The notes beneath the pieces are model-generated. The model worked only from the letters and a program-made list of their open reading frames with translations. It was not told where the DNA came from and did not search any database. A stretch of 64,000 nucleotides of DNA, taken from contig CAUYUJ010000126.1 of the NCBI GenBank assembly GCA_963575745.1, forward strand, positions 434,001 to 498,000, given 5' to 3'. Every line of letters begins with the position of its first letter. Positions within the stretch are counted from its first letter, which is position 1. The translations under genes were made by a program, and so were the position numbers. This DNA comes from Prorocentrum cordatum (taxonomy: Eukaryota). This document shows positions 831 to 48,223 of the stretch, one piece after another.

Positions 831-840
831 GTGTTTCCAG

Positions 841-945
841 GCTCGCGCGGCGCGAGCTCAGGTGCAGGCGGCCCAGTCGGCCACCATGGGCGCTGGCGGG
901 AGGCGCAAGCCTGTGGAGGAGGGAAGCAGAGCGGCCAAAGAACAG
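841..945 (+). CDS. Candidate isolated internal exon (ARAARAQVQAAQSATMGAGGRRKPVEEGSRAAKEQ), product unknown
   Basis: TTTCCAG|G acceptor at 840/841, CAG|GC donor at 945/946, 105 nt open frame in non-repetitive sequence. No family recognised. Confidence 0.3.
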
Positions 946-1296: not shown

Positions 1297-1528
1297 CACC
1301 ACCACCACCACCACCACCACCACCACTCCTCCTCCTCCTCCTCCTCCTCCTCTTCCTCCTCCTCCTCCTCCTCCTCCTCCTCCTCCTCCTCCTCCTCCTC
1401 CTCCTCCTACTCCTACTCCTANNNNNNNNNNNNNNNNNNNNNNNNNNNNNNNNNNNNNNNNNNNNNNNNNNNNNNNNNNNNNNNNNNNNNNNNNNNNNNN
1501 NNNNNNNNNNNNNNNNNNNNNGACTACG

Positions 1529-1586
<58 letters not shown>

Positions 1587-1688
1587 ATACTACTACAACG
1601 ACTACGACTACGACTACGACTACGACTACGACTACTAGTACTATTTCTTCTTCTACTACCACTACTACTACTACTGCTGCTACTACTG

Positions 1689-1719
<31 letters not shown>

Positions 1720-1810
1720 CACTACCACTACCACTACCACTACAACTACCACTACGACTACTGTTACTACTACTACTACTACTACCACACCTACTACACC
1801 TACTACTTCG

Positions 1811-1853
<43 letters not shown>

Positions 1854-1854
1854 T

Positions 1855-1902
<48 letters not shown>

Positions 1903-1905
1903 ACT

Positions 1906-1965
<60 letters not shown>

Positions 1966-1999
1966 GACTACTACTACTACGACTACTACGACTACTACG

Positions 2000-2055
<56 letters not shown>

Positions 2056-2140
2056 GACTACTACTACTACTACTGCTACTACTACTACTACTACTACTAT
2101 TACAACTCCTACCCCTACTGCGACTAGTACTACTACGACT
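1200..2140. repeat. (ACT)n microsatellite with (ACC)n and (CCT)n runs; contains the assembly gap
   Basis: Directly visible trinucleotide tract. Confidence 0.95.
1422..1521. other. Assembly gap (100 N)
   Basis: Run of exactly 100 N, typical scaffold spacer. Confidence 0.99.
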
Positions 2141-3430
<1,290 letters not shown>

Positions 3431-3577
3431 ATATTAATAATTACCCTGGCGACGTACCCAACCCCTGCGCAATGCGGGGCATAAGTAACATGGGAGACTT
3501 TATGCGGAAGTGATGACGTGACATGGGCTCATATACTTCTGCGAGCGGCATTCGTGAAACTCGCAGCTTTTCAAAGA

Positions 3578-5742
3578 CTGCGAGGTCCCGCTCAAATCTG
3601 CGTGGTGCCTCACTCCGCTGGACCCGCCACCAGCCTTTGAAAGTAGCGACAGTTTCGCAGATCACATCCCCCCAAGCACGGCGAAGCCCCTCTCAGATCT
3701 GCGCGGTGCCATCGAACGTGGCGACGGTTTCGCAGATCGCAGCCCCACAGGGACGGCGAGGTCCCGCTCAGATGTGCGCGGTCTCACTCCGTTGGACGCC
3801 CTCGAAAGTGGTGACAGTGTCGCAGATCGCCATGCTGGCCCCCCAGACAGCCATCGAACAGTGCGACATATTCGCAGATCGCAACCCCCCGGGGACGGCG
3901 AGGTCCCGCTCTGATCTGCGCCGTGCCTCACTCCGCTGGACCCACCAGCAGCCCTCGAAAGTGGCGACAATTTCGCAGATCGCAGCCCCCCAGGGACGAG
4001 GTCCCATTCAGATCTGCGTGGTGCCTCACCCCGTTGGACCCACCAGCAGCCCTCGAAAGTGGTGACGTCTTCGGAGATTGCTATGCTGGCCCCCCAAGCA
4101 GCCCTCGAAAGCAGAGATGGCTTCGCAGATCGCAACCCCCCAGGGACGTCGAGGTCTTGCTCAGATCTGCGCGGTGCCCCACCCCGCTGGACCCACCAGC
4201 AGCCCTCGAAAGTGGCAACTGTCTCGCAGATCGCAGACCCCCAAGGACGGCGAGGTCCCGCTCAGGTCTGCGCGGTGCCTCACTTCGCTGGGCCCACCAG
4301 CAGCCCTCGAAAGTGGCGACAGGTTCGCAGATCACAGCCCCCCAGGCACGGCGAGGTCCCGCTCAGATCTGCGTGGTGCCTCACTGCCACACTCCGCTGG
4401 ACTCACCAGCAGCCCTCCAAAGTGGCGACAATTTCGCAGATCGCAGCCTCCCAAGGACGGCGAGGTCCCGCTCAGGTCTGCGCGGTGCCTCGCTCCGCTG
4501 GACCCACCAGCAGCCCTCGAAAGTGGCGACGGGTTCGCAGACCGCAGCCCCCCAGGCACAGCGAGGTCTTGCTCAGATCTGCGCGGTGCCTCACTCCTCT
4601 GGACCCCCAAGCAGCCCTCGAAAGTGGCGACAGGTTCGCAGATCACAGCCCCCAAGGCACGGCGAGGTCTTGATCAGATTTGCGCAGTGCCTCACTCAGC
4701 TGGACCCTCCAGCAGCCCTCGAAAGTGGCGACGGGTTCGCAGACCGCAGCCCCCCAGGCACAGCGAGGTCTTGCTCAGGCCTGCGCGGTGCCTCACCCCG
4801 TTGGACCCACCAGCAGCCCTCGAAAGTGGTGACGTCTTCGGAGATCGCAGCCCCCCAAGCACGGCAAGGTCTTACTCAGATCTGCGCGGTGCCCCGCCCC
4901 GCTGGACACACCAGCAGCCCTCGAAATTGGCGACTGTTTCGCAGATCGCAGCCCCCCAGGCACGGCGAGGTCCCGCTCAGATCTGCGCGGTGCCTCACTC
5001 CGCTGGACTCACCAGCAACCCTCGAAAGTGGCGACAGGTTCGCAGATCGCAGCCCCCCAGGCACGGCGAGGTCTTACTCAGATCTGCGCGGTGCCTCACT
5101 CCGCTGGACCCACCACCAGCCCTCGAACGTGGCGACGGGTTCGCAGATCGCAGCCCCCCAAGCACGGCGAGGTCTCGCTCAGGTCTGCGCGGTGCCTCAC
5201 TCCGCTGGACTCACCAGCAGCCCTCGAAGGTGGCGACAGTTTCGCAGATCGCAGCCCCTCAGGCACGACGAGGTCTTGCTCAGATCTGCGCCGTGCCTCA
5301 CTCCGCTGGACCCACCAGCAGCCCTCGAAAGTGGCGACAATTTCGCAGATCGCAGCCCCCCAGGTACGGCGAGGTCTTGCTCAGATCTGCGCGGTGCCTC
5401 ACTCCGCTGGACTCACCTGCAGCCCTCGAAAGTGGCGACGGCTTCGCAGATCGCATCCCCCCCAGGCACGGCGAGGTCTTGACCAGATCTGCGCGGTGCC
5501 TCACTCCGCTGGACCCCCAATCAGCCCTCGGAAGTGGCGACAGGTTCGCAGATCGCAGCCCCCCAGGCACGGCGAGATCTTGCTCAGATCTGCGCGGTGC
5601 CTCACTCCACTGGGCCCACCAGGAGCCCTCGAAAGTGGCGAAGGATTCGCAGATCGCAGCCCCCCAAGCACGGCGAGGTCTTGCTCAACTCTGCGCGGTG
5701 CCCCACTCCGCTGGACTCACCAGCAGACCTCGAAAGTGGCGC
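3578..5742. repeat. Satellite B, ~101-bp tandem unit (GCCCTCGAAAGTGGCGAC...TTCGCAGATCGCAGCCCCCCAGGCACGGCGAGGTC...CTCAGATCTGCGCGGTGCCTCACTCCGCTGGAC), roughly 20 copies
   Basis: GCCCTCGAAA recurs at 4202, 4303, 4513, 4614 etc. (period ~101). Confidence 0.93.
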
Positions 5743-5877
5743 AGTCCCCCAGCGACGGCGAAGGAAGGGCAGGAGGCGAGAGGAGGCGGGAGGCGGGAGG
5801 AGGAAGAGGAGGAGGGACGCGACCCCAGTGCTCTATTGAAAACGAATATCAAACCAAGAAGGGTTGGGAATAAGATT

Positions 5878-10795
<4,918 letters not shown>

Positions 10796-11082
10796 GGGGT
10801 ACGTACGTACATACTTCGTACGTAAAAAGTAATCATGATAAACAAATGTAGGAGCAGGAAGAGGAGGAGGAGGGGGAGGTGAAGGAGAAATCAGATGCGT
10901 AGTGCAAAAAATAATCTCCCTCCTCCTCCTTCGAGTCCCCGCCCTCTTCCCGCATGTTTTCCCCCCTCCCCCTCCGAATTGTCCTCCCCCTCATCCCCGT
11001 CCTCGTCCTCCTCCTCGTCCGCGTCCGCGTCCTCGTCTTCGTCGTCCTCGCCGTCGTCGTGCAGAGGCGTTCCAGAGGCGCT

Positions 11083-11866
11083 CCACAGGCGTTCCAGAGG
11101 CGTTCCAGAAGCGTTCCGGAAGCGCCCGAGAAGCGTTCCAGAGGCGCTCTGAAGAGCGTTCGAAACTGCTCCAGAGGCGTTCCGGAAGCGCTCCAGAAAC
11201 CTATCCAGAGGCGTTCCAGAAGCGCTTAGAAGCGCTCCAGAGGCGCTCAGAAGCGCTCCAGAGGCGCCCAGAACCGCCCGAGAGGCGGTCCAGAAGCGCT
11301 CCAGAGGCGCCCCAGAGGCGCCCCAGAGGCGCTCCAGAGGCGCTCCAGAGGCGTCCCAGAAGCGCCCCAGAAGCGTTCCAGAGGCGCTCCAGAGGCGCTC
11401 CAGAGGCGCTCCAGAGGCGCTCCAAAAAACTCCATAGGCCACAGGCTGTCCAGAAGCGCTCCAGAAGCGCCCCTGAGGCGCCCCAGAGGCGTTCCAGAGG
11501 CGCTCCACGGGAGCTCCAGAGGCGCTGCAGAGGCGCTCAGAAGCGCTCCAGAGGCGTTCCATAGGCGCTCCAGAGGCGCTCAAAACCGCTCCAGAGGCGT
11601 TCCAGAGGCGCTCAAAAGGCGTTCCAGAAGCGCTCCAGAAGCGTCCCCGGAGCGCTCCAGGCTCGCTCCAGGCTCGCTCCAGAGGCGCTTCAGAGGCGCT
11701 CACAAGCGCTCCAGAGGCGCCCCAGAGGCGCTCCAGATGCGTCAGAGGCGCTCCAGAAGCGCTCAGAAGCGCTCCAGAGGCGCCCCAGAGGCGCTCCAGA
11801 GGCGCGCACAAGCGCTCCAGAGGCGCCCACGAGCGAGCGCTCCAGAGGCGCTCACAAGCGCTCCAG
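11083..11866. repeat. 11-bp minisatellite (AGAGGCGCTCC)n
   Basis: Dozens of AGAGGCGCTCC/AGAAGCGTTCC variants. Confidence 0.92.
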
Positions 11867-12004
11867 GGGCCGCGCGGGGGGGCTCGTAGTGCGCTCGTAG
11901 GAAATCTTCCAAAGCTTCAAAAACTTCGCGGGGGTCCTGTAACTGGGGAAGAACCCAGTTTGCCGGGAAGTACACAAGTTCGCCGGGGCAACAAATATTT
12001 CAGT

Positions 12005-13700
12005 TCAGGGCCCCTGGGCCCTCGGCAGGTCAGCCTTGGGCGGGGGGGCGAGACGGGCCCTCTCGACATTCTCGGGGCGGCGCTGCAGCCCGCGGGTGGT
12101 GGGCGGGATCCGGCGCTCTGCAGCGGCAAGGCCCCGGCGCTTGCCGCCGGCCGCCCTCCCGTAGCAGCGGCACTCGGTACAAGCGCGGTGCCCGTTGATC
12201 GTGCTCAGCTGGTGCTCGCCGCTGGCCACCTCAGGGGCTCCTGCGCCCCCGCCAGGGTGAGCCTCTGCGGTGACCAAATCCGAAAGGTCGACCGCCCCCC
12301 TATCTTCGGGCGATCTCGAGCGGCGGTCAGAAACCGCATCGCACTGCAAACTGGCCGAGAGATCAAGAGACTGCAAAGTCACAGGCGCCTGCGAACGACA
12401 CTCCTGACTATGCGGCAGCACAGGTGGGGCCCCCTTTGGGGCCTTCGCAGCGGGCCCCACAGGAGTCTCCGAGGCGAGCGAAAGCACCGAGGAGGGGAGG
12501 CAGGGGCCCCCACTGCGAGCAACAGCAGCACAGAACGCGGCGGGGCCTCGACTGGCTTTCGGGCCCACAGAGGCCTCAGACAGGGGCACCACGCGGGCTT
12601 TCGCAGCGGGCCCATTCGAGTCGCCACTCACAGCTACCGCGTCCCCAAGCGCAGCGGACGACCCATCGGCGCTGCTCGTGCTTGCTCCAGACGCGGCCGC
12701 CAGCAGGAAATCTACCTTCTGCGGCGCGGCCCCCAGATCCCCAGGCTCCTCCTCTACGTTGCTCTCTGCGCCCTGGGACGCGTGCTCGACTGACTTGGCC
12801 AGGGCCGCGCGCGCTGCCGCAATGCAAACAAGCGTGGCCAACGCGTTCCGAGCCGACCGCTTCGAACGCCCACCCGACAACGACGGGGCGCACGGCTTCG
12901 GGACGCACTGCTCGGCCCAGAAGTGCGCCTCGGCGTTGCTGCTGCGGGCCGTCTTGAAGCACTCGAGGCAATGGGCCCCTCCGTTCGGCACCTCGACAAC
13001 CTCATGGCTCACCAAATGTAGCTGAGCCCCACCCGCCTCCGGCGGCACGACTTCGCTGGAGATGTCGGACCTCCTGCCCGCTGCCACGGACCCAGCCGCA
13101 GGGACCCAGAAGGCGGCGCCCTGCATGGCCCGGCAAACCTCGATGAGCAGCCGCACGGCGTCGGGGGCGCCAGCGTGCGCAGCCATGAACTTGGCGCATC
13201 GATCTGCCCCCATGTTGCCACGCCTCGCCCTGGCGGCGATCGGGCCGCCCATGGCATGCTGCGCCGACGCGTGCGCCTTGGCCTTGACGACCGTCAGCCC
13301 CTGTTCGCCAAGGCCGCCGAAGTCCTGCGCCGCATGCCAGACGCTGACCCACAGCTCGGCCCAGGCTGACTTGCTGCTGGAGGTCTCATTGGGCCGCCTC
13401 TCGTCGATCTCCTCGACCGCGGAGTCGGCGTCAAAACGAGCGACCGCTGACGGGGTCGCACGCCTAGGCAAGGAGGCGCAGCGCCAACAACTTCCCCCCG
13501 TCGATGGACTGCAGGACGTCCGCCAGAGGGGAGGCGAGCGCCCGCGTGGCCGATCGCGGCCCAGGGCAAATGGCTCCCCCTCCGCGAGGTGGGGCTACCA
13601 ACGCGCTGGTTGCACAAGCGGCCTTTGCCCCGCCGTCGATGACGGCGCCGTCAGCGTACAAGTCAGGCTCTGCAAACGGCACACCTGCTTCGTGACCCTT
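12005..13700 (-). pseudogene. LINE A RNase H and C-terminal region (frameshift near 13465)
   Basis: LYADGAVIDGG...DADSAV...LW...VVKAKAH...RRGNMGADRCAK matches the RNase H D/D/H/GN-AD pattern; CxxC motifs follow (CLEC, CTEC). Confidence 0.75.
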
Positions 13701-14223
13701 GACCCACTGCGCGGGCGAGAGGACGTCGCCCCTTGGCGGCCTCCAATCCGAAGGAGGGTTCGGGCAGCCATGGCCTCTCCAGCGTCGTCCTGATGGTGAT
13801 GGGGTCGCCTTTTGACCGGGAACCTCGAGCTCCGCGGGCAGCGAGAGGCTTGGCCGCGCCTCCTGGCACTCCAGATGCCGATGCCACGGGGGGCCTACAT
13901 TGTCTGGGCACAGCGAACACGTAGAAACCGAGCTGGGGCCCGCAGCGCACCTCCCGTTGAGCCACTGCCCGTCCACGAAACGCGAGATGGCGCACCCTGC
14001 TTCCGTGGAAGTGAGAGGGCGCCACTTCCTGGAAATGGGGGTGGTGCTTTTGCCTTCTGAGACCCACCTGCGTACCTGAGGCAAGAAGACGACCCCTGCC
14101 GCGTAGACGTCTTGGTGCGTGGACTGGGCGAGCTGAGCGAGCTGCCGCCGCTCGACGCACCCGGTGGCGATCTGCTTCGCCGACCACGGCGAGCTTGCGG
14201 CCAGGTTGAGCTGCCCCCCCGCG

Positions 14224-15400
14224 TTAGCGAGCCACTTCGCGAAGGAGCCGGCCGTGAACCCGACCCTCTTGAGCGACGGGACTGCAGCGCCGAGCGGGCC
14301 CCTGACGTAGCTCCACGCCCCCGGCGACGCTAACACTCCCGTCGAAGGTGCTCTGGAGCATGGCAGCGGGCATCCACTTCTCCGACACCGCCATGGCCAA
14401 CACAATAACGGGCCTGAAAGTCGCCGTGAAGATGGGATCCAGAGCGCGGGCCCCCGCCAGCATAAGCACCGCCGCGGCGTTCTTACCCTGCGGCCGCTGC
14501 TCCGCCGCGCGCTGAGTGATGGGCCGCATCTTCGAGAGCTCGCTGCAGTTGACCCCTGCGCAGTTGCCCCCGTAAACCGCCGATGGGTGTAGGCCAGCGT
14601 GAGCGACCTTGGCGGCCGCTGCGCGACCGCGCCGCAGCCCGAGGAAGCAGCGCACCTTGCCGAGCATCATCTCGACGTTGGCCAGCCGCTGCTGCCCGAT
14701 GGCTCACGCCGCCCCCCGGCCCTCAGCGCGGTCGATGCCGGGGTTGCGCGCCCGCCGAGCTCCTCGGACTCCTGCGATCTTGACCGGCCGCCTCGAGACC
14801 ACGCTGCGCGGGCCGACCGCGCTGCCTAGGACACGCGACTTCTTAACGGCAATATTGAGCTTCACCCTCTGCAGCTGGTCATCCAGATGGTCGTGGACGC
14901 CGCTAGCTCGCCCTGACCTCTCTGCTTGCCTCCCCACCTCTGACGCACGAGGTCGTCGACCTCGATTGCTGGGGAGACGGCCCCGAACCCGGCGACTATC
15001 GCGCCGAGCGGCTGCAGCAGCATGATCTTCATAGAACCCGCGGCAAAGGCGCCCCCCGCCATGACCGCCTAGTAAACCTCCAGGACGCGCGAGCAACGGC
15101 CATCCAAGTGCAGGACGCGCGGCGCTCGGCAAAGCGACGGATGGAGCTTGGCCAGCCAGAGCGGGAACCTATACCTGTCGGCCGCGCTCACGAGGCACTG
15201 GCGCGGGACCTGCTCGAAAGACTTCCAGGTCGAGCAGGGCGCCGGCCGAGGCCCAGTCCTGCTCGGGACGCCGGCGAAGTCCTCCTTCGGCCTTGGGGGC
15301 GAAAGCCATCTTGGCGATGAAACTTGGCCAGTTGACCAGCCGCTCATTCTCCATGATCAGTTCGATGTGTGTCACAACGCCTTGATCTTCTAACAGGCTG
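14224..15400 (-). pseudogene. LINE A reverse transcriptase (stops and frameshifts)
   Basis: PKAEGGLR, LLDL-KSFEQV, AVMAGGAFA and IEVDDL motifs in successive frames. Confidence 0.75.
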
Positions 15401-16307
15401 AGTTCACTCGGACGAACTCTGTCAAAAATTTGGCCCAGACTGAGGCTTGAAGGAGGCAGTCGCTCTCCGCAGATCGGGCACACTGGGCCGACGGGGGCGA
15501 CCCCCGCTGTCCGCAGGCCACGCCAGACGGCGCATCTCCCCCGCAGCGCAGGGACTCGCGCCAGGAGCAGTGAGGTCCCAGTACCCGCACCACTCGTCAA
15601 CCACGGCCTGCAGTCTTTCCTGAACCGTGAGTGGAACTGCGGCACCGACCTTTGCTGGTCTGGCATTCCACGACTGCGCCAGCTTGGTGGCGGCGCGAAT
15701 CCCTCCAGAGCCAGTGACCACCGACTGCTGCGCCCAATCGTTCTAGCCGCGCTTCGCCTCGGCCAGGTCGCGCTCGACCATCTCCTCGGACCAGGCGAAG
15801 CAGGCAGCGCTGGCCACCCCCAGCTGCTCGAGCGAGAAATCCTGGGCGCCGCTGCCAAGGGCGCGCGCGACGTCCTGCGGCACGGCGAGGTTCGGCGGGG
15901 CCTTGATAGTGAGCCTGCCGAGCGCTTTCAGCGCCCCCGCCCCGAGAGCGGCTCGCCGATCTGCGCCGCATCGCGCAGGCAAATAACCGCGGATCTGCAC
16001 CGAGCGGCCGCCCTAGTGACCCGCGGCAGCCCGGGCGGCGATGGGGGCAGTGGCCGAAGTGGCCACGGGCCCAGGGCTCCCAGCGCCCCCCGCGCAGCGG
16101 TCCAGCTCGTGAACGAGGCCGCACGCGTCGACCATGCTGACCTCAGCCTGCGCGAGAAAAGTCAGTCACATGCGGTCGAGGTCGCCCGTGGACTCCAGCT
16201 GCTCGCGCACGCGCGTCCACCTGGGGGGATGGCCCCTAGAGCAACGCGCAAGAAGTCGGGGCAGAGGGAGCCGCTTCGCCGTCTTCCTGACAGTGGCGTC
16301 CTGATGT

Positions 16308-16994
16308 TTACCAGGCCCCAACAGCTCCCGGGCGGCCGGCTGGGTAGCGCGGGTTCAGGTCGAGCCCGTGGGCGGCGCTGGCACTGGCGCCTCGGGAGAG
16401 CCTCGAGACGACGAAACAACCAATGATCTTGCCAGCGGACCAGCAGGCAGCCTCCGTAGGCGCTGCAATCACGGCACGCACTGCCTCCAGCCAGCCTGAC
16501 TCTGTCAAGACTGCGATCTCCATGTCGAGGTCGCCGCTGACGACGAAGGGCCTGTTGGTCGCCTGCAGTGCCCGGAGCACCTTGTGTAGCGTGTCCGCGC
16601 TGGCCCCGTTGAGCCCGACGTCGGCCTTCAGGTAGATGTTGGCCCGAGCTATGCCGCCTCTGCAGACGCCGTTGAAGTGGGAGATAAGCGCACGACCAGG
16701 CTCCAGGAGGGCTGGCTGGTCGAGCAGCTCGAAGCACCCTAGCCCGAGATGCTGTGGTACCACCTGGACGAGCCCGCCGCTGACCAAACGCCCTGGCCCT
16801 GCGTTGATCGCGGGTGCCGCCTCCGTGACCCAACCGAGCCGTCGGTTTTGCCGCTGGACGCCCTGCGTCCTCTGGGGGGCGAGGTGCGTCTCCTGGACGA
16901 CAGCGAAGTCGCTGCACCTGACTGTGGACGTGCTCAGCAAGCTGGGCGAAACGCGCGCGACCACGTGTTGGAATGGACGGTGAGCCCGACCCAC
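16308..16994 (-). pseudogene. LINE A apurinic-like (APE/EEP) endonuclease
   Basis: DFAVVQETHL, SGGL, ANIYL, PFVVSGDLDM motifs. Confidence 0.8.
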
Positions 16995-17068
16995 CAGCGC
17001 TCTTGCTGGCCGCCTGGCCGCCTGGGCATAGACGAGGAATGGTTGCCGCCGACGGCGCCGGGGATCGA

Positions 17069-18052
17069 CTACCCACCAGAAATCTTGGAACGTTTGGCAG
17101 CACGGATGGCTTCGAGTGCGTCCAGAAGCCGCTTCCGCTCGTGCTCGTCACCACAGCCACTGAACACCCAGCCAGGGTCCTCCTCGTCCAAGAACTTGCC
17201 GAAGGCGTCGCCGTTGTCCTGGCCCATGGTGGCGTCGCCGTCGCTGGCAGTAGTCGCGGCACCAAGGCCTCCGCCGCCCTTGCCTCCTCCGCCGCCTGCG
17301 CCAGCGCTGGCTCTGGATCTTGCCGCAAGGGCGCGCGGGCACGAGCCGGGGCACTCGCTGCGGCGACCACCTCGTCGAAAAAAGGCGGCGAAGCTGACCG
17401 AGACCTCTTCGCCCGATTTGCCCTCCGTGGGGATGGTCGCGACCTTCCCCTTGACGGTGCGGAGGGTCTTGGCCGCCGTAGCAGAGGCGTAGAGCTTGGC
17501 TGCTTGCTTCTTGGCCTCCTCGAGCTCGGCTTTGCGCTGAGCCATGACACGATCTGCCTCTGCCAGCGCCTCCAAAGCCTTGCGTGGTTGTTCCAGAAGG
17601 CGCCTCCTCTTAGCTGCCGCACCCGCCAACGCCAGCGAGGCCTGATTCACCGCTGCAAGGAGCTTGCGAACCGCTGAGCCCAAGGCTGCACTTCGGCGTG
17701 CCAGCTCGATCATGTCCCGAGAGTTTCTGGAGAGTCCGTCCTTGATCACATCGTACGCTTCTGGGGCCATGGCAGCGTAAACAGCGATCTTGTCGTGCGT
17801 GTGGGTGAGGATGGTGGGAGCAGCCCCCCCGCCGTTAGGCCCACCCTTACCGTGCCGTTCCTTGCTGATGCCGTTGCCTCCGTGCTGCTGGGCCCGTGGA
17901 GCGCCAGCGAGGCCTCCGCCTTGCGCACACTTGCCTCCAGGCTTGCGACCTCCGTCGTGAACGGCTAGAACGTGATGCTTGCCTTTACGCCCCGCATTGA
18001 AAAGAGCGAAAGATGCTGAGGCGTGAAGCTTCCGCACTGCACACGCACACAT
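17069..18052 (-). CDS. LINE A ORF1 (gag-position, coiled-coil-like); true start uncertain
   Basis: 327-codon ORF directly 5' of the APE, with Ala/Glu/Lys-rich helical stretch (LEALAEADRVMAQRKAELEEAKKQAAKL). Confidence 0.6.
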   Translation of the reverse strand: MCACAVRKLHASASFALFNAGRKGKHHVLAVHDGGRKPGGKCAQGGGLAGAPRAQQHGGNGISKERHGKGGPNGGGAAPTILTHTHDKIAVYAAMAPEAYDVIKDGLSRNSRDMIELARRSAALGSAVRKLLAAVNQASLALAGAAAKRRRLLEQPRKALEALAEADRVMAQRKAELEEAKKQAAKLYASATAAKTLRTVKGKVATIPTEGKSGEEVSVSFAAFFRRGGRRSECPGSCPRALAARSRASAGAGGGGGKGGGGLGAATTASDGDATMGQDNGDAFGKFLDEEDPGWVFSGCGDEHERKRLLDALEAIRAAKRSKISGG

Positions 18053-18263
18053 TCACACACACACACACACACACTGCCAGCACTTCGCCATGAAAGCGGG
18101 AGGGTCCAGCAGGCCAGGACAGTGAGGACATGGACTGCGCACCCTCGGGCTGAGGGAGGCAGGTGGCTACCAGGGGCGGACCTGGCTCCACAAGAAGAAT
18201 CGCGAGCTCGGGAAACCAAGCTGTCCCACTTTGGCACGAGGGCGCGGAAGCCCCCAGGTGCAT

Positions 18264-18285
18264 CGTGAGCCAAAATGGCTACGGA
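18264..18285 (-). other. Complete dinoflagellate spliced leader sequence at the 5' end of LINE A
   Basis: Reverse complement reads TCCGTAGCCATTTTGGCTCACG versus DinoSL DCCGTAGCCATTTTGGCTCAAG (21/22). Confidence 0.93.
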
Positions 18286-18299
18286 GCAATCGCTGATGC

Positions 18300-18445
18300 A
18301 TTAGATGTACCCCCCTTATGGGGCCGCGAGACGTGTGAGGGGTGTACCAACATGAGGGGGTGGCGGCATGCGGGCGCAGCCACTTGGGCCTTAGGTGGAG
18401 CTCCCTGCGGGGACCACGAAATGTGTGAGGGGTTTCCCAAGTGAG
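18300..18445. repeat. Satellite A, short block, followed by GA-rich tract and terminal motif at 18666-18708
   Basis: Same unit as 222-830. Confidence 0.85.
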
Positions 18446-18889
18446 GAGGGCGATGGGAGTCCCGAACTGGTTGACATGCGGAGGGCAGATGCAAGAGTGG
18501 GAGGAGGGAGAAACGGGAAGAGGAGCGGAGATGAGAGGAGAGGGGAGGGGAGGAGAGGAGAGGAGAGAAGAGGAGAAGAAGGGAGGGGAGAGGGGAGGAG
18601 AGGAGCGGAGAGGAGATAGGAGAGGAACGGAGAGGAGAGTGGAGAAAAACATGGGCGCGGGGACTGTCTCTTCAAAACGAGGGCCCAGCATCACAGGATG
18701 ACTGGGAAACATGAGTAATCTTATTGATCTGACTACTTGGGGCGAGTGCTCGCAAGACATGAACAGCTCGACCGTCTTCGTTTACACTCGCCGCATGCCC
18801 GTCCCTAAACAACACGCTACCTTCATTATCTTGGCGAAAAGGCCCAAACCATATGTAGTGGCGAGTACTGCCAATGCGAGACACGCCAT

Positions 18890-20072
18890 CGGTGGAGCTC
18901 CCGACGGAGCCGCGAAATGCGTGAAGAGAGGTCAAGGAATACCAAGCAAAATGTACGGGGGAGAAGGGGCGGCATACGGGCGCAACCACTGAGGCCTTAG
19001 GTGTAGCTCCCAATGGGGCCACGGACCGTGTAAAGGCTGCATGCGAGCGCAGCCACTGGGTCCTTAGGTGGGGCTCCCTATGGGACCACAAAACGTGAGG
19101 GGTGTGCCAAATTGAGGGGGTGGCGGCATGCGGGCGCAACCACTGAGGTTTTAGGTGTAGCCCCCTACGGGGCCACGAAACATGTGACGGGGGTGCCAAC
19201 GTGAATGGGTGGCGGCATGCGGGCGCAGCCCCTGGGGCCTTAGGTGGAGCTCCCAATGGGGCCACGAAGCGTTTGAGGGATGTGCCAAAATGAGAGGGTG
19301 CCGGCATGCGGGTGCCGCCCTTGGGGCCTGAGGTGTAGCTCCCGATGGGGTCACGAATGTGCGACGGGTGTGCCAAAAGTGCGGGGGGGGGCGCCATGTG
19401 GGCGCGACCACTGGGGCCTCAGGTGTAGCTCCCTATGGGGCCACGAAACGTGCGAGAGATATACCAGAATGAGGGGGTGGCGGCATGCGGGCGCAGCCAC
19501 TGAGGCATTAGGTGTAGCTCTCTATGGGGCCACGGAAGCGTGCGAGGGGTGTGCCAAAATGCGGGGGTGGCGGCGTGCGGGCACTGCCACTGGGGCCTTA
19601 GTTGGAGGAGCCACGAAACGTGTGAGAGGTGTGCGAACATTAGGGGGTGGCGGCATGTGGGCGCAACCACTGGGGCCTTAGGTGTGGCTCCCTATGGGGT
19701 CAAGGGGGTGGCGGCATGCGGGCGCAACCACTGGGGCTGTAGGCGTAGCTCCCTATGGGGGGCACGAAACGTGTGAAGGATGTAGCAGAATGAGGGGGTG
19801 GCGGCATGCGGGCGCAGCCCCTGAAGCCTTCGGTGTGACTCCCAATGGGGCCACGAAACGTGTGAGCAGCCGTTGGGGCCTTAGGTGTGACTCCCAATTG
19901 GGCCACGAAACGTGTGAGCAGCCGTTGGGGCCTTAGGTGTGGCTCCCAATGGCGCCACGCAGCGTGTGAGGGGTGTGCCAAAATGAGAGGGTGGCGGCAT
20001 GCGAGCGCAAGCACTGAGGCCTTAAGTGTAGCTCCTTATAGGGCCACGAAACGTGTGAAAGATGTACCAAAA
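18890..20072. repeat. Satellite A array
   Basis: ~89-bp units. The last unit is split at CCAAAAT and resumes at 21560. Confidence 0.9.
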
Positions 20073-21559: not shown

Positions 21560-21740
21560 TGAGGGGGTGGCGGCATGCGGGCGCAGCCATTGGGGCCTTA
21601 GGTGTAGCTCCCTATGGGGCCACGAAACGTGTGAGGGGTGTGCCAAAATGAGTGTGTGGCGGCATGCGGGCGCCGCCAGTGGAGCTTTAGGTGTAGCTCC
21701 CAATGGGGCCACGAAACGAGTGAGGGGTGTGCTAAAGTGA
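21560..21740. repeat. Satellite A, continuation after element Z, followed by GA-rich tract
   Basis: Same unit. Confidence 0.88.
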
Positions 21741-22034
21741 AGAGGGGTGACGGGAGGAGGAGAAGGAGGAGGAGGAGGAGGAGGAAAACAGGGGAGGGGA
21801 GGGGAGGGGAGGAGAGGAGAGGAGAGAAGAGAGGAAAGGAGAGGATAGGAGAAGAGGGCCGCGGAGGCCGTCTCTTCAACAAGGGCCTTCAGTCCCACAA
21901 GCTGAGATAGCCTGAGTTACCGCGCCGCGCGGTGGCATGATGCTTGCGACCTCTGAGATACGTCTGAGCAAAAAATGAGGACCACGGAAACTGCGCCCCC
22001 GGTCGGGCGGGACATCCCAGATCAGCTCGGATGC

Positions 22035-22204: not shown

Positions 22205-22525
22205 CTCAACGTCGTTTTTCGTTTTGGTGTCGTATTGTTGTTCGTTTTGCTAGACCTGTTTTCCTGCACCTCCCTGCCACAACGAAAAACATAACACAGC
22301 CGAAGTCCAGCAAAGCTCGGGTCGGGCGAAAGGGGGGATAGCAAAGGGGAGGTTTGAGAATCAGCTCACGTAGCTGATTTTCCCGGCGCCTCCCGGCGCC
22401 GGAGACGGCTATGTATCGAGGAATGGGCCCCTCGGTGAGGCCGAAACCAGCTGCAAGCAGCAAATTTCGTACCCCCCCTTTCCCAATCCCCCCGTTCGCC
22501 CGGCCCGAAAAACAGCGTTTGGGTC

Positions 22526-22919
22526 CATCCCTGGCCTCTATCTCCAGGACCTCTGTGACCTCCGAGCGGGGGCAGGCCAGGCAGACCTGGGGGCCCCTCC
22601 TGCGTCGGCGGCGCCTCGCGGCGGACGAGTTCTTCTGGCCCACGATGGCCCTCCTGCTGCGGCTGGCCTGGAAGTGCCACGCGCGCTGCTGCTCGTCCTC
22701 CAGCACCACGAGGCCGCGCTGGCAGTCCGACAGGGCGCGCTCCGCGGCCTCCGGGCCCGCGAACTCGACGAACGCGTAGCGAGCGTTGCCGACGACGTCG
22801 CGGAACACGGCGCAGCGCTGCACCGCGCCCTCCTCACACGCGTCGAAGGCGAGGCAGAGCTCGTCGTCCGACGCCCGGCGCGGGAAGTTTGCGATCACCA
22901 GGGTCCTCCGCACCGCCTC
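22526..22919 (-). CDS. RRM-protein gene, exon with the RNA-recognition motif
   Basis: RNP2-like LVIANF and RNP1-like RYAFVEF, then AERAL. TTTGAAG|G acceptor. GA donor at 22525 inferred from phase. Confidence 0.8.
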
Positions 22920-23073
22920 CTTCAAAGGGGCCCAAGGACAGTAGACACAAATACCAAGATTCCCAATCTGTTGTCATATTTTCTTGACTTCCGTCGTCCC
23001 CCCCACTGCCCATGTCTTCCCCCATTTTCCAGGGGAGCCGACGATGAAGCGTGTCTGTGTGTCTCTTCCCCTC

Positions 23074-25971: not shown

Positions 25972-26339
25972 TGGTGGTCTGCCGTGCTGGTCTGCCGTGC
26001 TGCTGTGGTCTGCTACGCTTCTGTGGTATGCCGTGCTGGTCTGCAATGCTGGTCTGCTGTGTTGGTCTGCTGTGCTGATAAAGTATGTTATGTCCCTTTG
26101 GTATGCCGTGCTGGTTTGCCGTGCTTGGCTGCCGTGCTGGTTCGTCGTGATGCTCAACCTTGCTGTTGTGGTAGGATATGTTCTTATGGTTTGCCGTGAA
26201 AATGTTCCGTGCTGCTGCCGTCCGCTATGCTCCTGTGGTCTACCGTGCTGGTAAGCCCGGCGCCGAATTGACGAAATCGGTAATGGTATGCTGCACTGGT
26301 CTGCCGTACTGGTCTGCCTTGCTGGTCTGCCGTGCTGCT
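25972..26339. repeat. 13-bp satellite (GCTGGTCTGCCGT)n, degenerate; further pieces at ~31040-31089, ~32751-32860 and ~34372-34453
   Basis: Repeated GCTGGTCTGCCGT variants. Confidence 0.85.
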
Positions 26340-29300
26340 GTGAAAGTGAAAATGAAAGCCGGGGCTTTAAAAAAGGCTCTCCGGAGGAGCCCTCCAATAC
26401 AAGAAAAACGGGGCGGCCCTAAAAGGCCACGGCAGGCGGAGGCGGGCCAGCCGACAGGCTTGATTTAGGGCCCCCCAGACGCCAAGCCCACCCCTCACGC
26501 ACGGCAGTCGGACACCACAACATGACCCTGCACACAAATCACAACGAGCGAGTGTGCACCCAGTAAAGTACAGACACAAAGCTCGACAAGATGCAACGGC
26601 AATCGGGCACCACGAAATGACCGCGCTAACAAATCTCAACCGAGCGAGTGTGCAGCGAAGACAGTACAGGCACAACGCTCGACGAGATGCAAAGGAAGAA
26701 AGAACATATACTACATTATTAAATCATCACTCTTCTCGGCCCTGGCGCCGAGGCGATCCGCGCGGCGGCGCACGCGCCTGCGCTCGACCGCACTGACAGC
26801 GGCGTGAGCGCTGGCGGTCAGCTCGGCCTCGCCCAGGCCGTAGGCCGCCAGGAGGTCGCCGCGGGCCACCGCGCCTTGGCCGCCTGCCGCAGTCCCCGAA
26901 GCCTCAGGCGCAGGCCCGCCGCTCGCTCCGCGCGCACTGCCGCCGCCTCCAGGCGCGGCCCGAGGGCCTGCGGCGGCCTCGGCGCACGGGCGCTCGACCC
27001 CATGCCCGCTCGCACCTGCGGCTCCGCTGGAGCCCGCGGCACTGGCGCCCACGCCGCTTGCCGCTGGCTGCTCGGCCAGGACTCCGAGCCACTCCAGGTA
27101 GCGCTCCCGGGCATCTGCCGGCAGCGGCCCTTGCCCTCGGAGGCCGGGGATGGCCTGGTCCATCTGGCGCTGCTTCGCCGACCGCGGCCTCCCACCTGGG
27201 TGGGGTCCGCGCCCCCGCAGGCCGCGCTGGTCGCGCCCGCTCGCGTCCGCCCCGTCGGCCAGGCAGGGCCCCTTCGGCCGCGGCTTGACCCCGGGGCGGC
27301 CTCCGAGCAACATGTAGGATCCGCACTTGGCGCACGCCACCAGCTCCTGGGTCTGCTCGTCGTCGCCGCAGCAGGCGCAGCTGAGGGCGCGCCCGAGGAT
27401 GCTGATGGCCGCCGCGCCAGCCGAGAGGGCCGCGGCGCTGCCGGCCGAGCGGGCGCTCTCCAGGCGCGGCGCCTCGGGCGCCGGGCCCTCCTCGGCAGGC
27501 GGGGCCCGCGGGTCCGGCGGCACCTCGAAGCGGGCCTGCCGCCGCTCGCCAGCCTCAGGGAGGGCCTCGCAGCCCTTCTCGCTGATGCCTTCCCAGATGA
27601 CCGCTGCCTGGCCAATCCACCGTGCCAGCTCGCCGACCCCCTCAGCCAGCGCATGGTGCTCGCCGACGGCCTGGCTGTCCACGGCATTCAGCCTGGCCCC
27701 CATCTTGGCGAGGCGGTCGGCGCGGTCGTTCCCGCGCCGCCGGGCCTCCGCGAGGCGCCCATCCAGCACGGCCTGGCGGCTGCAGTGCGCGGGCACCTTC
27801 AGCGCTGCAAACGAGCCAGGCTCGAAGACCGCGTGGATCCTGCTTCAGAGGTGAGAGTTGGCCCTGCTGGGCGCCGTGGCGCAGGCTCGGCCCCGCGAAA
27901 GGCAGGAGACGGTGAAGCTGCAATCGACGTGAACCTCCCCGACCGCTGGCCCTGCATAATTGGCCAGCATCCACAGCGCGAAATCCTCCCCGTCCTTGGC
28001 CGTCTGCCGCGGGCAGAAGTCCCGCCTCGCCGTGCCGTGGGCGCCCGCGGCGAGGTCGCCGTCGTCGTCGCCTGCGCAGTGGCCCAGCCCGCTCGGCGAA
28101 GGGAGCCGAAGTGCGGCTCGAGAGCCGAGCCGTCCAAGCGCAGCTCCCCGTTCTGCGCGTCGTCGGGCGGCCCGCGGATCCACCGCGCACTCGCGGCGTC
28201 TGCGCGGCGGCCCTGCGGAGGGGGCGGCGCTGGGAGCCAGCAGCGCGCGAAGTCCTCTCCTGCCGCCTCGCTCTGGGCGCGGACCCGCTCAGCGCACCTG
28301 GCGAGGCGCGGAGACACGCTGTCCCTCCGCTGGGCCGCGAGCATGGGGCACTCGAACAGTCTGCGCCAGAAGGCGCCACGCGCCTCTCCACAGCAGCGGC
28401 GCCTGGCGTGGCCGCGCCCCTCGGCGTCGCACAGCCTGGCCCGCGCCCAGTGCGCGTTGGAGATATAGGCGATCAGCGCGCGCTGCTCTCGCTCGCCTAG
28501 GTCGCCCCCAAGCCCGAGCAGCGGCGCGATGGCATCCCAGAACAGCAGCCCCAGAGACACCCTGCCGCGGGAGAGCTTCCGCATCTCATGGCGATCGGAG
28601 GCGCGGCGCGCCCCGGGCCCTGCCTCGATCCCCAGCTCGCGCGGGCCCCTCTCCGCGCCCGCGGCTTGCAGCGCGATGTCGTCGACGACGCTGCGGGCCA
28701 CCGCCACAGGCCTGCCACCTGCAGAGGCGGCGCGGAGCGCCCCCAACACAGGCAGCTTGGCGACCGTAGTGGCGCATGCGCAGCCCGCCAACACGGCGCC
28801 CTGCGTGCCGAAAACATCTGAGGCGAGGCCGACGAAGCTGATGAACCTGGGGCTCTGGCACATCACGAGCAACCCCTTCAGCAAGCGGAGTTTGAAGCCA
28901 TGCTCGATGGCGCAGCTCCAGAGCACGTCGTGCCGCAGGTTCTCGTAAAACTTCGTGATGTCCAGGAAGGGGCTGGCTGGGGCAAACCCGCTCTCGCGGG
29001 CGAAGGCCGCGAACTGGCTGTGGAACCACCCTGCCTTCTCGCAGAGTCGACCCGCCTTGCCCAAGAAGGAACGATAGTCGCGATCCGCCTCCCGCAGCGC
29101 ACAGGCGGGCTGCCCGAGGCGGCTCCGGAGGCGGAGGAGGAGCGGAATGAAGGCGATCGGCCTCGCTCCTCCGTCGGCCTTGGGGATGAACACCATCATG
29201 GTCGCGAACGCCCCCCAGCGCTTGAAGCCGCTCCTCGTAGGCAGCAAGGATGTCCAGGCACCTCAGCTGCAGGGCCACAGGCAGGAGCACCAGCTGCCGT

Positions 29301-31030
29301 GGATGCAGCTGGTCGGCCCCCAGGCCCGCAGTCGGCGAGTAGCGCCTGCAAGTCACCTGCAGCATCTCGAGCGTGATGGGAGACATCCCCCGGCCCTGGA
29401 TGTCCCAGCCGCCGACGCCTGCACGCGCGGCGAAATGGCAGCAGCTTCTGCCAATTCGCCTCCAGCTGCTCGGCGGCCAGCATGCCCGCCAGCGGCCTGC
29501 CCGTGGCGGGGTCGACGACCTTCGGGGGGGACACGGCCCTCGAGAGACCGTGGGCCAGCCTGCCCCCGCGCTGGACCGCCCCCTTGGCCCAAGCCCGCCA
29601 GGTCGCCGCGCCCCAAGCGCCGTCGCGGCGCTGGGGGGCCGCGAGGCGCAGCTGGAGGACCTGGACGGCGCCGCCGTGCCCGAGCGCTCCCGCCTGGCTG
29701 ACAAGGTCGCCCCGCTCGCTGGCGTCGAAGCCGAGGGTCTCGACCTCATCCTCCTGGCAGGCCGAGGCGATGGTCTCCTCGAAAAGGCGCGTCGCACGCC
29801 CGGCCTGGAGGGCGTGCCAGGGCTCGCGGGGCGGGTGCCATCTCTGCGTCCGCTCGGCCATCAGTCGCTGCAGCGGTAGGTCCAGCGCCTGGCGGATGGC
29901 GCGCGTGAGCCCCGAGTGCCGATGGCGGCACTCGCGCTTCACCACGGCGCTGAGGGGCTTGAGCACACGCCTGGGCCCCTCCCCTCTCCCAAGGTAGCGC
30001 TTGGAGTCCGCGGTCTGGATCCCGTGGATTCCGACCAACGCGCCCTCCACCGCCTCCGCCCACGGGCGAGCCGCCGCGGGCAGGTCGGGCGGGAGGGGGC
30101 CGACCTCCCAGCTCCAGCGGCAGGGCTGCGCCTTCCACCTGGCGCGCCCGACGAGGCGGTGCACCTGGACCAGGGCGTCGCCGCGCTCGCAGCAGTCGTC
30201 GGCGTCGACGTCGGGGAAACGCCCAGGGCGGACGAGCACCTGCACCAGCGCGTCGGGCCTGACGTCCTGCAGCAGCAAGCGCACTGGCTTGTGGGGGAAG
30301 GGCCCGAGCCATCCAGTGCGGCTGCCTCCGCGACCCCGTGGGCGAGGCAGTATGAGCTCGCCAACCAGTCGTGCACGTGCTCAGCCCCTTGAGCCCTGCA
30401 GGTGGCCCCCGACGGGCCGAGGTACGCCCCGCGCTGCACGTTGGGCCAGCCGAGCTAGCGCAGGGTGCCAGGCTCCATGTTGAAGTCCCCTTACACCAGC
30501 CAGGGCAGCCCCACGGCGAGCACCGTGCCCCAGAAAGTGGCGAAGATGTCCAGGTTGACGACCTTGGGCCCCAGCCCGTCCTGCAGGTAGAAGGAGCAGG
30601 CCAGAAACTCCAGCCCTGAAGCAGCCGCGACCGTGACCCCGATGATGCGGTGTCCGAGGTCGTCAGGGTCCAGCCAGTCCACCTTGCCACCTTGAAGGTC
30701 GTCGCGGACCAAAACGCCGACGCCCCCAGAGTGCGCCAGCGGCCCCTCCTTGTCAGTCGCGGCCGAGGCGTGGAGGAAGGCTGCACAGCCCAAGCCCCTG
30801 GCCCTGCCGCGCGCCGCCTGCATCTGGTGCGGGGCCAGGCGCGTCTCCTGGATCAGCACCAGGTGGGGCCGCGAGCCCTCGCGGCTCACGAAGGCCTCGA
30901 GGACCTCCAGGCTGCGGCGCCACGCGTTGCCGTTGATCCCCAGGACCTCCAGGCCGCAGCGGACCTGCCGCTTGGCTGCAGCTGACTCGCCTGGCGCAGG
31001 TGGGAGCTGCACCCTGCCGCCGCCAATGCG
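26340..31030 (-). mobile_element. LINE family B copy 1 (APE-RT-RNase H; 5'-truncated, internal deletion near 28650, frameshifted), (TTTCAC)n tail
   Basis: APE: GING, LIQETRL, HSGGVGVLV, SFYL. RT: FIPKADGGARPIA, FLDITKFYE, VLAGCACAT, VVDDI. RNase H: LDGS, AKDGE, VDC, RRGNDRADRLAKMGA. Confidence 0.92.
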
Positions 31031-31089
31031 GGCGGCGGCGTGCTGCTGTGGTCTACTATGGCCCTGTGGTCTGCCGCGCTGGTCGGTCA

Positions 31090-32750
31090 GTGAAAATGAA
31101 AGTGAAAGCCGGGTCCTTGAAGGCTCAAAGGAGGAGCCCTCCAATACACACAAAAAAGGGCGGCCCAAGAAGGCCGGGGCAGGCGGAGGAGGGCCAGCCG
31201 ACAAGCTTGACTTAGGGCCCCCCCAGACGCCAAGCCCACCCCTCACGCACGGCAGTCAGACACCACGACATGACCGCGCAGTCACCCTCGAGGCGAGCAA
31301 GTGTGCTGCAAGGAAAGTACAGGCACAAAGCTCGACGAGATGCAACGGCAATCGGGCACCGCGGAACGACCGTGCTCGCAAATCTCGAAACGAGCGAGCG
31401 CGCAGCAAAGATAATGCAGACACATCGCTCGACGATATGCAAAGAAGAAAAAACATATACTACACAATTCAATCATCACTCTCCTCGGACCTGGCGCCGA
31501 GGCGGCCCGTCCAGCGGCGCGCGCGCGCGCCTGCGCTCGACCGCGCTGACGGCGGCCTGAGCGCCGGCAGTCAGCTCGGCCTCGCTCAGGGCCGTAGGCC
31601 GCCAGGAGGTCCACGCGCGCCGCAGCGCGTCGGCCGTCTGCCGCCGCCGCCGAGGCCTCAGGCGCAGCCGCGCCGCTGGCTCCAGGCGCTCTGCCGTCGC
31701 CGCCGGGCGCGGCCTGCGGGCCAGCGGCGGCCTCGGCGCGCAGGCGCTCGACCGCGTGCCCGCTCGCTTCTGCGGCGCCGCGGGGGCTCGCAGAGCCGGC
31801 GCCCCCGCCGCCTGCCGCTGGCTGCTCGGCCACGACCCCGAGCCAAGCCGATCCCGGGCGTCCGCCAGCACAGGCCCTTGCCCGCGGAGGCTGGGGATGG
31901 CCTGGTCCTTCTAGCGCTGCCCCGCCGACCGCGGCCTTCCACCTGGGGAGTCCGCGCTCCCACAGGCTGCGCTGGTTGCGCCCGCTCCTGTCCGTCTTGT
32001 AGGCCAAGCAGGGCCCCTTCAGCCGCGGCTTGACCCCCGAGCGGCCTCCCAGCACCATGTGGGCGCCGCGCTTGGCGCGCGCCACCAGCTCCTGGGTCTG
32101 CTCGCCGTCGCCACGGCAGGCGCAGCTGAGGGCATGCCCGAGGATGCTGAAGACCGCTGCACCAGCAGGGAGGGCCGCGGCGTTGCCGGCTGAGCGGGCA
32201 CTCTCCAGGCGCGGCCCCTTGGGCTCTGGGCCCTCCTCTGCGGGCGGGGCCTGCGCGTCTGGTGGCACCTCGAAGCACGCCTGCCGCCTCTCGCCAGCAT
32301 CGGGGAGGCCCTCGCTGTCCTTCTCGCCGATGCCCTGCCAGACGACCGCGGCCTGGCCGATCCACCGCGCCAGCTCGCCGACCACCTCAGCCAGGGCATG
32401 GTGCTCGCCGACGGCCTGGCTGTCAACTGCATGCAGCCTAGCCCCCATCTTGGCGAGGCGGTCGGCGCGGTCGTTCCCGCGCCGCCAAGCCTCCGCGAGG
32501 CGCCCATCCAGCACGGCCTGGCGGCTGCAGTGCGCGAGCGCCTCCGCGCTGCAAACGAGCCAGGCTCGAAGACCGCCTGGGCCCTGCTCCGGAGGCGGGA
32601 GTTGCCCGCGTAGTTGGCCAGCATCCACACCGCAAAGTCCTCGCCGTCCTTGGCCGTCTGCTGCGGGCAGAGGTCCCGCCTCACCGCGCCGTAGGCGCCC
32701 GCGACCAGGTTCCCGTCGTCGTCGCGCTGCGCGATGGCCCAGCCTGCCGC
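31090..32750 (-). mobile_element. LINE family B copy 2, 5'-truncated within RNase H
   Basis: Collinear with the 3' part of copy 1, same 3'UTR and TGAAAG tail. Confidence 0.9.
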
Positions 32751-38739: not shown

Positions 38740-38978
38740 AACTTCCTCCTCCTACCTCCTCCTCCTCCTCCTCCTCCTCCTCCTCCTCCTCCTCGTCCTC
38801 GTCCTCTCCTCCTCCTCCTCCTCCTCCTCCTCCTCCTCTCCTGACCTCTCCTCCTCCTTCCGTTCCTGCTGTTCCTCCTTTTCGATTTAGCTCCCCCTCC
38901 TGCCTGCTTTCCTCCTCCTCCTCCTCCTCCTCCTCCTCCTCCTCCTCCTCCTCCTCCTCTTCCTCCTCCGCCTCCGCC
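38740..38978. repeat. (CCT)n microsatellite
   Basis: Directly visible. Confidence 0.9.

Positions 38979-46922: not shown

Positions 46923-48223
<1,301 letters not shown>

Follow-up and report, generated by a model that had tools for sequence, protein, structure and literature searches.

We have analyzed a 64-kb stretch of the genome of the dinoflagellate Prorocentrum cordatum (contig CAUYUJ010000126.1, positions 434,001 to 498,000), called here the window, in whose coordinates positions are given. The subject is a long interspersed nuclear element (LINE) on its minus strand, whose 5' terminus is a complete copy of the spliced leader of dinoflagellates (DinoSL, or SL), the exon that is trans-spliced onto nuclear mRNAs. 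Along the element and its two flanks we distinguish the following features, where ORF stands for open reading frame, APE for the endonuclease of the endonuclease/exonuclease/phosphatase type, RT for reverse transcriptase, UTR for untranslated region and HSP for high-scoring pair.

18286..20058 (no strand): 89-bp satellite A, the 5' flank, broken in mid-unit at the SL
18264..18285 (-): DinoSL copy, 22 nt, complete, forming the element's 5' terminus; 21/22 identical, with A>C at position 21
17771..18263 (-): 5' leader, 493 nt, beginning with ATG directly behind the SL; (GT)n run at 18083-18038
17069..17770 (-): ORF1, 233 aa, open, stop at 17071-17069; no Pfam family
12005..17029 (-): remnant of ORF2, with its ATG at 17029 and its stop at 12007-12005; from the P0011 N-terminus and P0151 HSPs
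16311..16961 (-): APE domain, from homologue alignments
14296..15829 (-): RT domain, frameshifted; the homologues carry RVT_1, and the YXDD position reads EVDDL
13866..13919 (-): zinc-knuckle-like motif CX2CX9HX4C after the RT, found by eye in the translation
13190..13660 (-): RNase H domain, from P0014 and P0151 alignments
11871..12004 (-): 3' UTR, 134 nt, without poly(A), read from the sequence
11062..11870 (-): (GAGCGCCTCTG)n, an 11-nt array of ~75 units (809 bp), perhaps the 3' tail of the element, perhaps target DNA

The spliced leader and the insertion site

The minus strand reads TCCGTAGCCATTTTGGCTCACG at 18285-18264, which is identical at 21/22 positions, D being T, to the DinoSL consensus DCCGTAGCCATTTTGGCTCAAG (PMC7245778; here and below papers are cited for the passages covered by our literature search). 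The sole mismatch is an A>C change at position 21, through which the terminal AG is lost. Both the match and this change from AAG to ACG had been described in the original prediction, and we read them in the same way. Only this one site in the 64 kb, on both strands, matches DinoSL with ≤3 mismatches, and none of 100 dinucleotide shuffles yielded an SL match. The copy lies on the coding strand of the LINE, the local order on the minus strand being ...gattgc, then TCCGTAGCCATTTTGGCTCACG, then atgcacctggggg; the dinucleotide right after the SL is AT, and not a GU/GC donor. A sense-strand SL at the 5' boundary of an insert, with no GU/GC donor after it, is the pattern of an SL-tagged retrocopy. 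In a looser scan of the window one further candidate relic appeared, CCCTTTTGGCTCAAA at 23900-23886 on the minus strand (13/15), and elsewhere only background. This candidate is located ~0.9 kb upstream of an RRM_1 ORF (22209-22973, minus strand) that has relatives with 77-89% identity on short contigs from JGI, ENA and NCBI.

The 5' flank belongs to satellite A, units of which are found in the window at 224-815, 18286-20058 and 21560-21887. Alignments (blastn) to other satellite A units extend to 18283/18284, and the T at 18285 differs from the base expected of a unit. Since the satellite homology ends at 18283/18284, the SL starts at the breakpoint; the ~15 nt formerly placed between satellite and SL do not exist, and the two abut. 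On the other side, the 11-mer array (11870-11062) is followed by a GA-rich stretch and then by kilobases of trinucleotide repeats, and neither an SL remainder nor an SL-RNA intron was found 3' of the array.

Two peculiarities of the satellite touch on the insertion site. Each satellite A unit holds CATTTTGGCACA, which agrees at 11/12 positions with the SL core that includes the Sm-like AUUUUGG; an equal score was reached by 12 of 5000 shuffles of the unit consensus. Satellite A may descend from an SL-bearing sequence. Besides, the edge units at 18286-18311 and 834-860 (minus strand) share the variant GCATCAG.GA.TGC, which is absent from the other 22 units listed. One of these two units adjoins the SL and the other opens the array at 833, and their shared variant may be due to chance or to a duplication, since diverged, of a single target unit.

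Anatomy and decay of the element

No Pfam LINE domain was detected in the window's own minus-strand ORF pieces (10 + 41 pieces), and the domains became apparent through homologues. A phmmer search with the piece 16311-17147 against 1.84 billion representatives gave 409 relatives at E<=1e-3, of which 40 remained at E<=1e-10. Pfam analysis of 16 of the 409 APE relatives detected Exo_endo_phos in 10/16 (6 at or above the cut-off), RVT_1 in 11/16 (9 at or above the cut-off) and RNase_H in 1/16. The homologue alignments (tblastn) are collinear with the window from 17800 to 12893, with the relatives of the APE piece covering 16961-12893. At the 5' end, residues 96-233 of P0001 align to 17800-17402, that is, to ORF1 (30% identity, E 2e-4); at the other, residues 1160-1282 of P0014 align to 13582-13190, and the Pfam RNase_H domain of P0014 spans residues 1130-1283. 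By way of these homologues the element has an APE N-terminal to the RT and an RT with a YXDD-type motif, as APE-type LINEs do. In the window copy itself, the APE motif QETH is intact, GDFN has become GDLD and IDYF has become IGCF. The order ORF1, APE, RT and RNase H behind the SL on a single strand therefore stands as originally predicted, with the correction that the domains can be recognized only via homologues and that the copy is decayed.

Some parts gave no match. The 400-aa C-terminal piece of the RT had no homologue among longer proteins; the C-terminal 394 aa contained no Pfam family, and a restriction-like endonuclease was not seen there, its absence not being proven; a search of PDB with P0014 was negative. 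Neither Pfam nor a homologue search revealed gene-like features in the leader (18263-17771), and for its 97-aa ORF, which begins at the SL junction, the homologue search found no protein relatives.

Decay is most evident in ORF2. The alignments to the closest long relative, P0151, run through frames 2, 1, 0, 2, 0, 2 and 1 and include 5 stops. Altogether we counted seven frame changes (the start frame included) and at least five in-frame stops in ORF2. The DNA read data consisted of 3 runs from one study, of which the low-coverage run X1 contains 0.22 of the words and gave short contigs only. The frame change at 15274-15227 is contained in an X1 contig (15167-15405) with 0 differences to the window, so that decay, and not assembly error alone, accounts for it, at least there. 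Judged from these alignments, the window copy is a dead, full-length APE-type retrotransposon without long terminal repeats (non-LTR).

An intact SL-capped LINE on another contig

Contigs of prokaryotic metagenome-assembled genomes (MAGs), searched for exact copies of the 21-nt SL, gave 20 stretches, on which tblastn was run with 162 LINE proteins. In 1 of the 20, L135 (= L143), LINE coding sequence follows downstream on the SL strand. L143 is contig JBCBMO010000012.1 (9096 nt, GC 0.70), which is listed in a Pseudomonadota MAG and is evidently a eukaryotic contamination of that bin. Its features are:

1-116: microsatellite (AGAGAGAC)n/(AG)n
117-137: SL nucleotides 2-22, exact
between the SL and the ORF at 231: leader, 93 nt
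231-1340: ORF1 candidate with a RanBP-type zinc finger
1358-8965: ORF of 2536 aa, uninterrupted

In the 2536-aa ORF Pfam finds Exo_endo_phos at 36.7 bits, RVT_1 at 43.0 and RNase_H at 25.9, none of them below its curated cut-off. About 1180 aa precede the APE; the first ATG is at nt 1907, and the frame is open from 1358. Behind the stop come 37 nt with A6 as their end, and the (GA)n microsatellite returns at 9006. L143 is hence a closed insertion between two stretches of one microsatellite, with its coding capacity intact. No second copy of the element was found in the same MAG. Among the 20 stretches, 7 have the SL followed by GTAC, GTTG or GTCT and are likely SL genes; at the other non-donor SL sites no Pfam family was detected downstream (20 ORFs). 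With L143 also beginning in an SL, an SL-defined 5' end looks like a recurring property of LINEs in organisms that use DinoSL.

Other copies, reads and collections

X1 contigs are identical to the window on five parts of the element away from the SL junction. Other copies of the element body are represented by X1 contigs with 80-95% likeness on parts; protein fragments with 62-69% amino acid identity also exist. No X1 contig was seen to bridge the SL junction (18264-18285) or to link the leader to ORF1, and the bin 17763-17981 was without cover. In one X1 contig (depth 65.6) position 15835 is linked to 18266, within the SL; one side of this link spans just 21 letters, and sides of <30 are unreliable. 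On the minus strand 15835 is not preceded by an AG. The link may represent an SL attached to a site within the LINE. A contig of X3, from another organism of the same study, has a copy of the SL region at 18260-18285 with 2 differences.

In metagenome contigs, the search for ORF1 gave 594 pattern matches and 0 confirmed ones. The junction pattern had 2 matches there, both due to chance, one in an SL-capped FKBP-like transcript contig and the other in a bacterial membrane gene. P0014 and P0009 had no match in viral contigs. An exact SL was present in 119 stretches of viral contigs (956 kb, median GC 0.21), in which tblastn gave 0 matches to LINE proteins and no RT was found among 87 ORFs downstream of the SL. 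These IMG/VR contigs (L001-L119) come mostly from giant-virus MAG bins and have the exact 21-nt DinoSL at 134 distinct sites, only 11 of which are followed by GT/GC. Many of the sites are located 1-30 nt before long virus-like ORFs (ribonucleotide reductase, DNA polymerase X, Bro-N, YqaJ, DUF4116), and contig L067 opens with an SL 7 nt before an RdRP_1 ORF.

A probable trans-spliced LINE RNA and its alternatives

We consider it probable (about 0.75) that the mRNA of the window LINE was SL-trans-spliced and then reverse-transcribed to its 5' end. This is the most economical reading of the locus, and for the window LINE and L143 together the best interpretation is that SL-trans-spliced LINE mRNA was reverse-transcribed to the 5' end or to within one base of it. 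The original prediction had proposed such an origin, which the position of the SL at the satellite breakpoint and the case of L143 support in part. A source copy would have been transcribed, possibly by read-through, and trans-splicing at an acceptor located ~0.5 kb upstream of ORF1 would have added a capped SL to the pre-mRNA. The SL-capped LINE mRNA would have been translated and, in target-primed reverse transcription by its own or a related APE/RT, copied as far as SL nucleotide 1; the inserted copy would have decayed afterwards.

Truncated CCATTTTGG... relics behind the full SL are found neither in the window LINE, which has a single full-length 22-nt SL, nor in L143. Source copies may have had a plain acceptor, or re-splicing may take place at the terminal AG of a relic SL, the AG that is mutated in the window copy.

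Several observations weigh against a trans-spliced origin. At the window the insertion is bounded on the 5' side only, satellite A does not resume on the 3' side, and no target-site duplication was found. The leader (18263-17771) is only putatively sequence of the LINE family, of whose 5' end a single copy was seen. On the 5' side of a second, different LINE of the window (described below) there is no SL-like sequence above background, so that the SL either is no universal feature or is not preserved in every case. As for L143, base 116, which takes the place of SL nucleotide 1, is a C and may be part of the microsatellite. Its APE is distant from that of the window element (direct BLASTP E 0.13), its ORFs have no tblastn match in the window, and the two are linked via shared homologues. 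The closest short APE relatives of the window element, P0004, P0008 and P0011 (62-69% over 61-89 aa), are labelled in EukProt as Pyramimonas, a green alga (prasinophyte culture); one option is that this set holds DNA of an organism that uses DinoSL, and the use of DinoSL by the host of the window is itself deduced only from this SL and the one weak relic. The closest named long homologue, for its part, comes from Prorocentrum/Polarella. Finally, a Symbiodinium preprint (10.1101/783902) reports that the functions of DinoSL-relict genes and RT genes do not overlap.

Among the alternatives, the SL might have been spliced to an acceptor in host DNA upstream of the source copy, or else to some host transcript unrelated to the LINE, so that the insert would be a 5' transduction or chimera with a partly non-LINE leader and a junction that is not fixed in the family. 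No relatives of the leader were detected, a (GT)n run lies in it, and, as noted above, no X1 contig was seen to join it with ORF1, all of which such an origin would allow. Yet ORF1 is found in good context 515 nt from the start of the SL, the leader shows nothing gene-like and that of L143 is short, 93 nt, and directly before ORF1, which makes a chimera unlikely. It is clearly less probable that the reverse transcriptase, having copied an uncapped LINE RNA to its 5' end, jumped to SL RNA or to an SL-bearing mRNA, in analogy to the template switch of L1 to U6. Nothing specific speaks for such a jump, which would likewise put an SL at the 5' end, and against it the copy consists of the 22-nt exon only, ending at the splice position with no SL-RNA intron, while L143 has the identical exon boundary. 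We give least weight of all, and very little, to a mis-assembled join of satellite, SL and LINE. That no X1 contig was seen to bridge 18264-18285, and the very high copy number of the flanking satellite (bin depth 36802), would fit an artefact, but a mis-join would not make a 22-nt SL, the continuity from SL to leader, which is the point that counts, falls within unique sequence, and five other parts of the element are matched by identical X1 contigs.

There is also the question of whether the LINE could have inserted beside an SL that was already there, either as an element specific for SL-RNA genes or by landing, by chance, next to a relic SL of the satellite. Targeting of small-RNA genes is known among APE-type LINEs. 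Other non-LTR elements, CRE1/SLACS/CZAR and NeSL-1, insert inside SL-RNA genes by means of a restriction-like endonuclease, and like the window LINE are physically joined to SL sequence. They have, however, SL-gene sequence on both sides, whereas the window LINE is flanked by satellite and L143 by (AG)n; here, in contrast, the whole SL exon stands before the element, no donor comes after it and the nuclease is an APE. In Fugacium kawagutii the sequence downstream of the SL in SL genes always begins with GU or GC (PMC6616646). The window has AT after its only SL, no donor follows the 3' array of the element either, and Rfam detected no RNA gene in the window, with nothing at E<=10 in 17900-18700. 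An SL-RNA gene is weakened as an alternative by this AT, the satellite upstream and the APE in the element. For a relic in the satellite speaks the SL-like motif of the satellite A unit (CATTTTGGCACA, 11/12 of the SL core, 12/5000 shuffles). But the 26 nt upstream of the SL match the ordinary satellite unit, 13 nt out of register with that motif, the SL of L143 is flanked by (AG)n and not by an SL gene, and the 5' end of the element would have to fall precisely at SL nucleotide 22. A pre-existing SL is on balance improbable, if marginally less so than a template switch.

Beyond the single locus, one can imagine a promoter-free group of LINEs, whose read-through RNA would be capped by SL trans-splicing at the 5' edge, the relic AG possibly regenerating that edge, and whose RT would copy to the cap and also make SL-tagged retrogenes. 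We put this forward tentatively and rather doubt it as a whole; a promoter-free life cycle and a role of the RT in making retrogenes are both compatible with the data.

Other LINEs and repeats in the window

The second LINE (~26142-32743, minus strand) has its APE at 31030-30204, RT at 29654-28618 and RNase H at 28114-27479, and is flanked by the 13-mer (ACCAGCACGGCAG)n, upstream at 32850-32744 and downstream at 26340-25975. A third LINE fragment (37567-38701, minus strand) retains the C-terminal region of the RT only and adjoins (TCC)n at 38744-38975. At 61091-61627 (minus strand) there is a copia-type RT fragment, with RVT_2 at 24.1 bits, below the cut-off. The motif AAAATCATTGATTTTAC...CCATTTTGGCCTCCTG.GGGGG is repeated on the plus strand at 48600-48655, 48890-48945, 57436-57480 and 57507-57556; the AAAATCATTGATTTTAC motif adjoins (CAAGAGGCCCC)n arrays resembling the 11-mer array behind the LINE, and had no match in Rfam. 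Trinucleotide arrays within 1326-10783 and 46925-48223 include a 4.9-kb (AGT)n and two arrays of 1.3 kb each, (TAG)n and (ACT)n. A 101-bp satellite is located at 4085-5741 and a gap of 100 N at 1422-1521.

Relation to known systems and significance

In dinoflagellates, DinoSL relicts mark reverse-transcribed mRNAs (PMC12014239, PMC5585692), and SL-tagged retrogenes are reported to make up >20% of the genes in Symbiodiniaceae (PMC5585692, PMC6050394). The window LINE is similar to such DinoSL-relict retrogenes (Slamovits and Keeling, 2008, via PMC7245778; PMC5585692) in having a genomic SL 5' of a retrocopied mRNA, on the same strand and with a short leader. It differs from them in that the retrocopied mRNA is the retrotransposon's own and that the SL is single and of the full 22 nt. 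With the dinoflagellate LINEs of the APE-RT-RNase H type (P0001 of Prorocentrum cordatum / Polarella glacialis; SymbioLINE, PMC5890265) it shares the order of domains and, across APE, RT and RNase H, 27-42% sequence identity; the literature covered reports no SL at the 5' end of P0001 or SymbioLINE. The trypanosomatid L1Tc/ingi elements (PMC1874656, PMC8190864) are also LINEs under polycistronic transcription and SL trans-splicing that need a translatable 5' end. They have, though, their own promoter at the 5' end, the internal promoter Pr77, and abundant unspliced transcripts, where the window LINE has the host SL. We found no description of a LINE with an SL as its 5' terminus in the literature searched, although literature outside that coverage may hold one. 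The element unites two known kinds, a LINE and an SL-tagged retrocopy.

The RT responsible for SL-tagged retrogenes has been sought before. Song et al. (2017) found the Gene Ontology term 'RNA-dependent DNA replication' enriched among relict-bearing genes, the responsible RT being unknown (PMC5585692), and Song et al. (2018) favour Ty1/copia as its source. Our finding bears on the question of which RT makes the numerous SL-tagged retrogenes of dinoflagellates: a LINE with an SL on its own full-length copies indicates that its machinery meets SL-capped RNA and can copy it to its end. On the promoter-free reading above, a LINE RT would be the long-sought maker of these retrogenes, and a comparison of the insertion signatures of LINEs and retrogenes makes the source of the RT a testable question. 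The SL-tagged genes in giant-virus-like DNA merit separate attention.

For the LINEs themselves the meaning is a different one. LINEs lose the sequence upstream of their transcription start on copying, and for this reason depend as a rule on an internal promoter. A 5' end set by the SL would solve the problem in another way, open only to elements of organisms in which trans-splicing caps the mRNAs.

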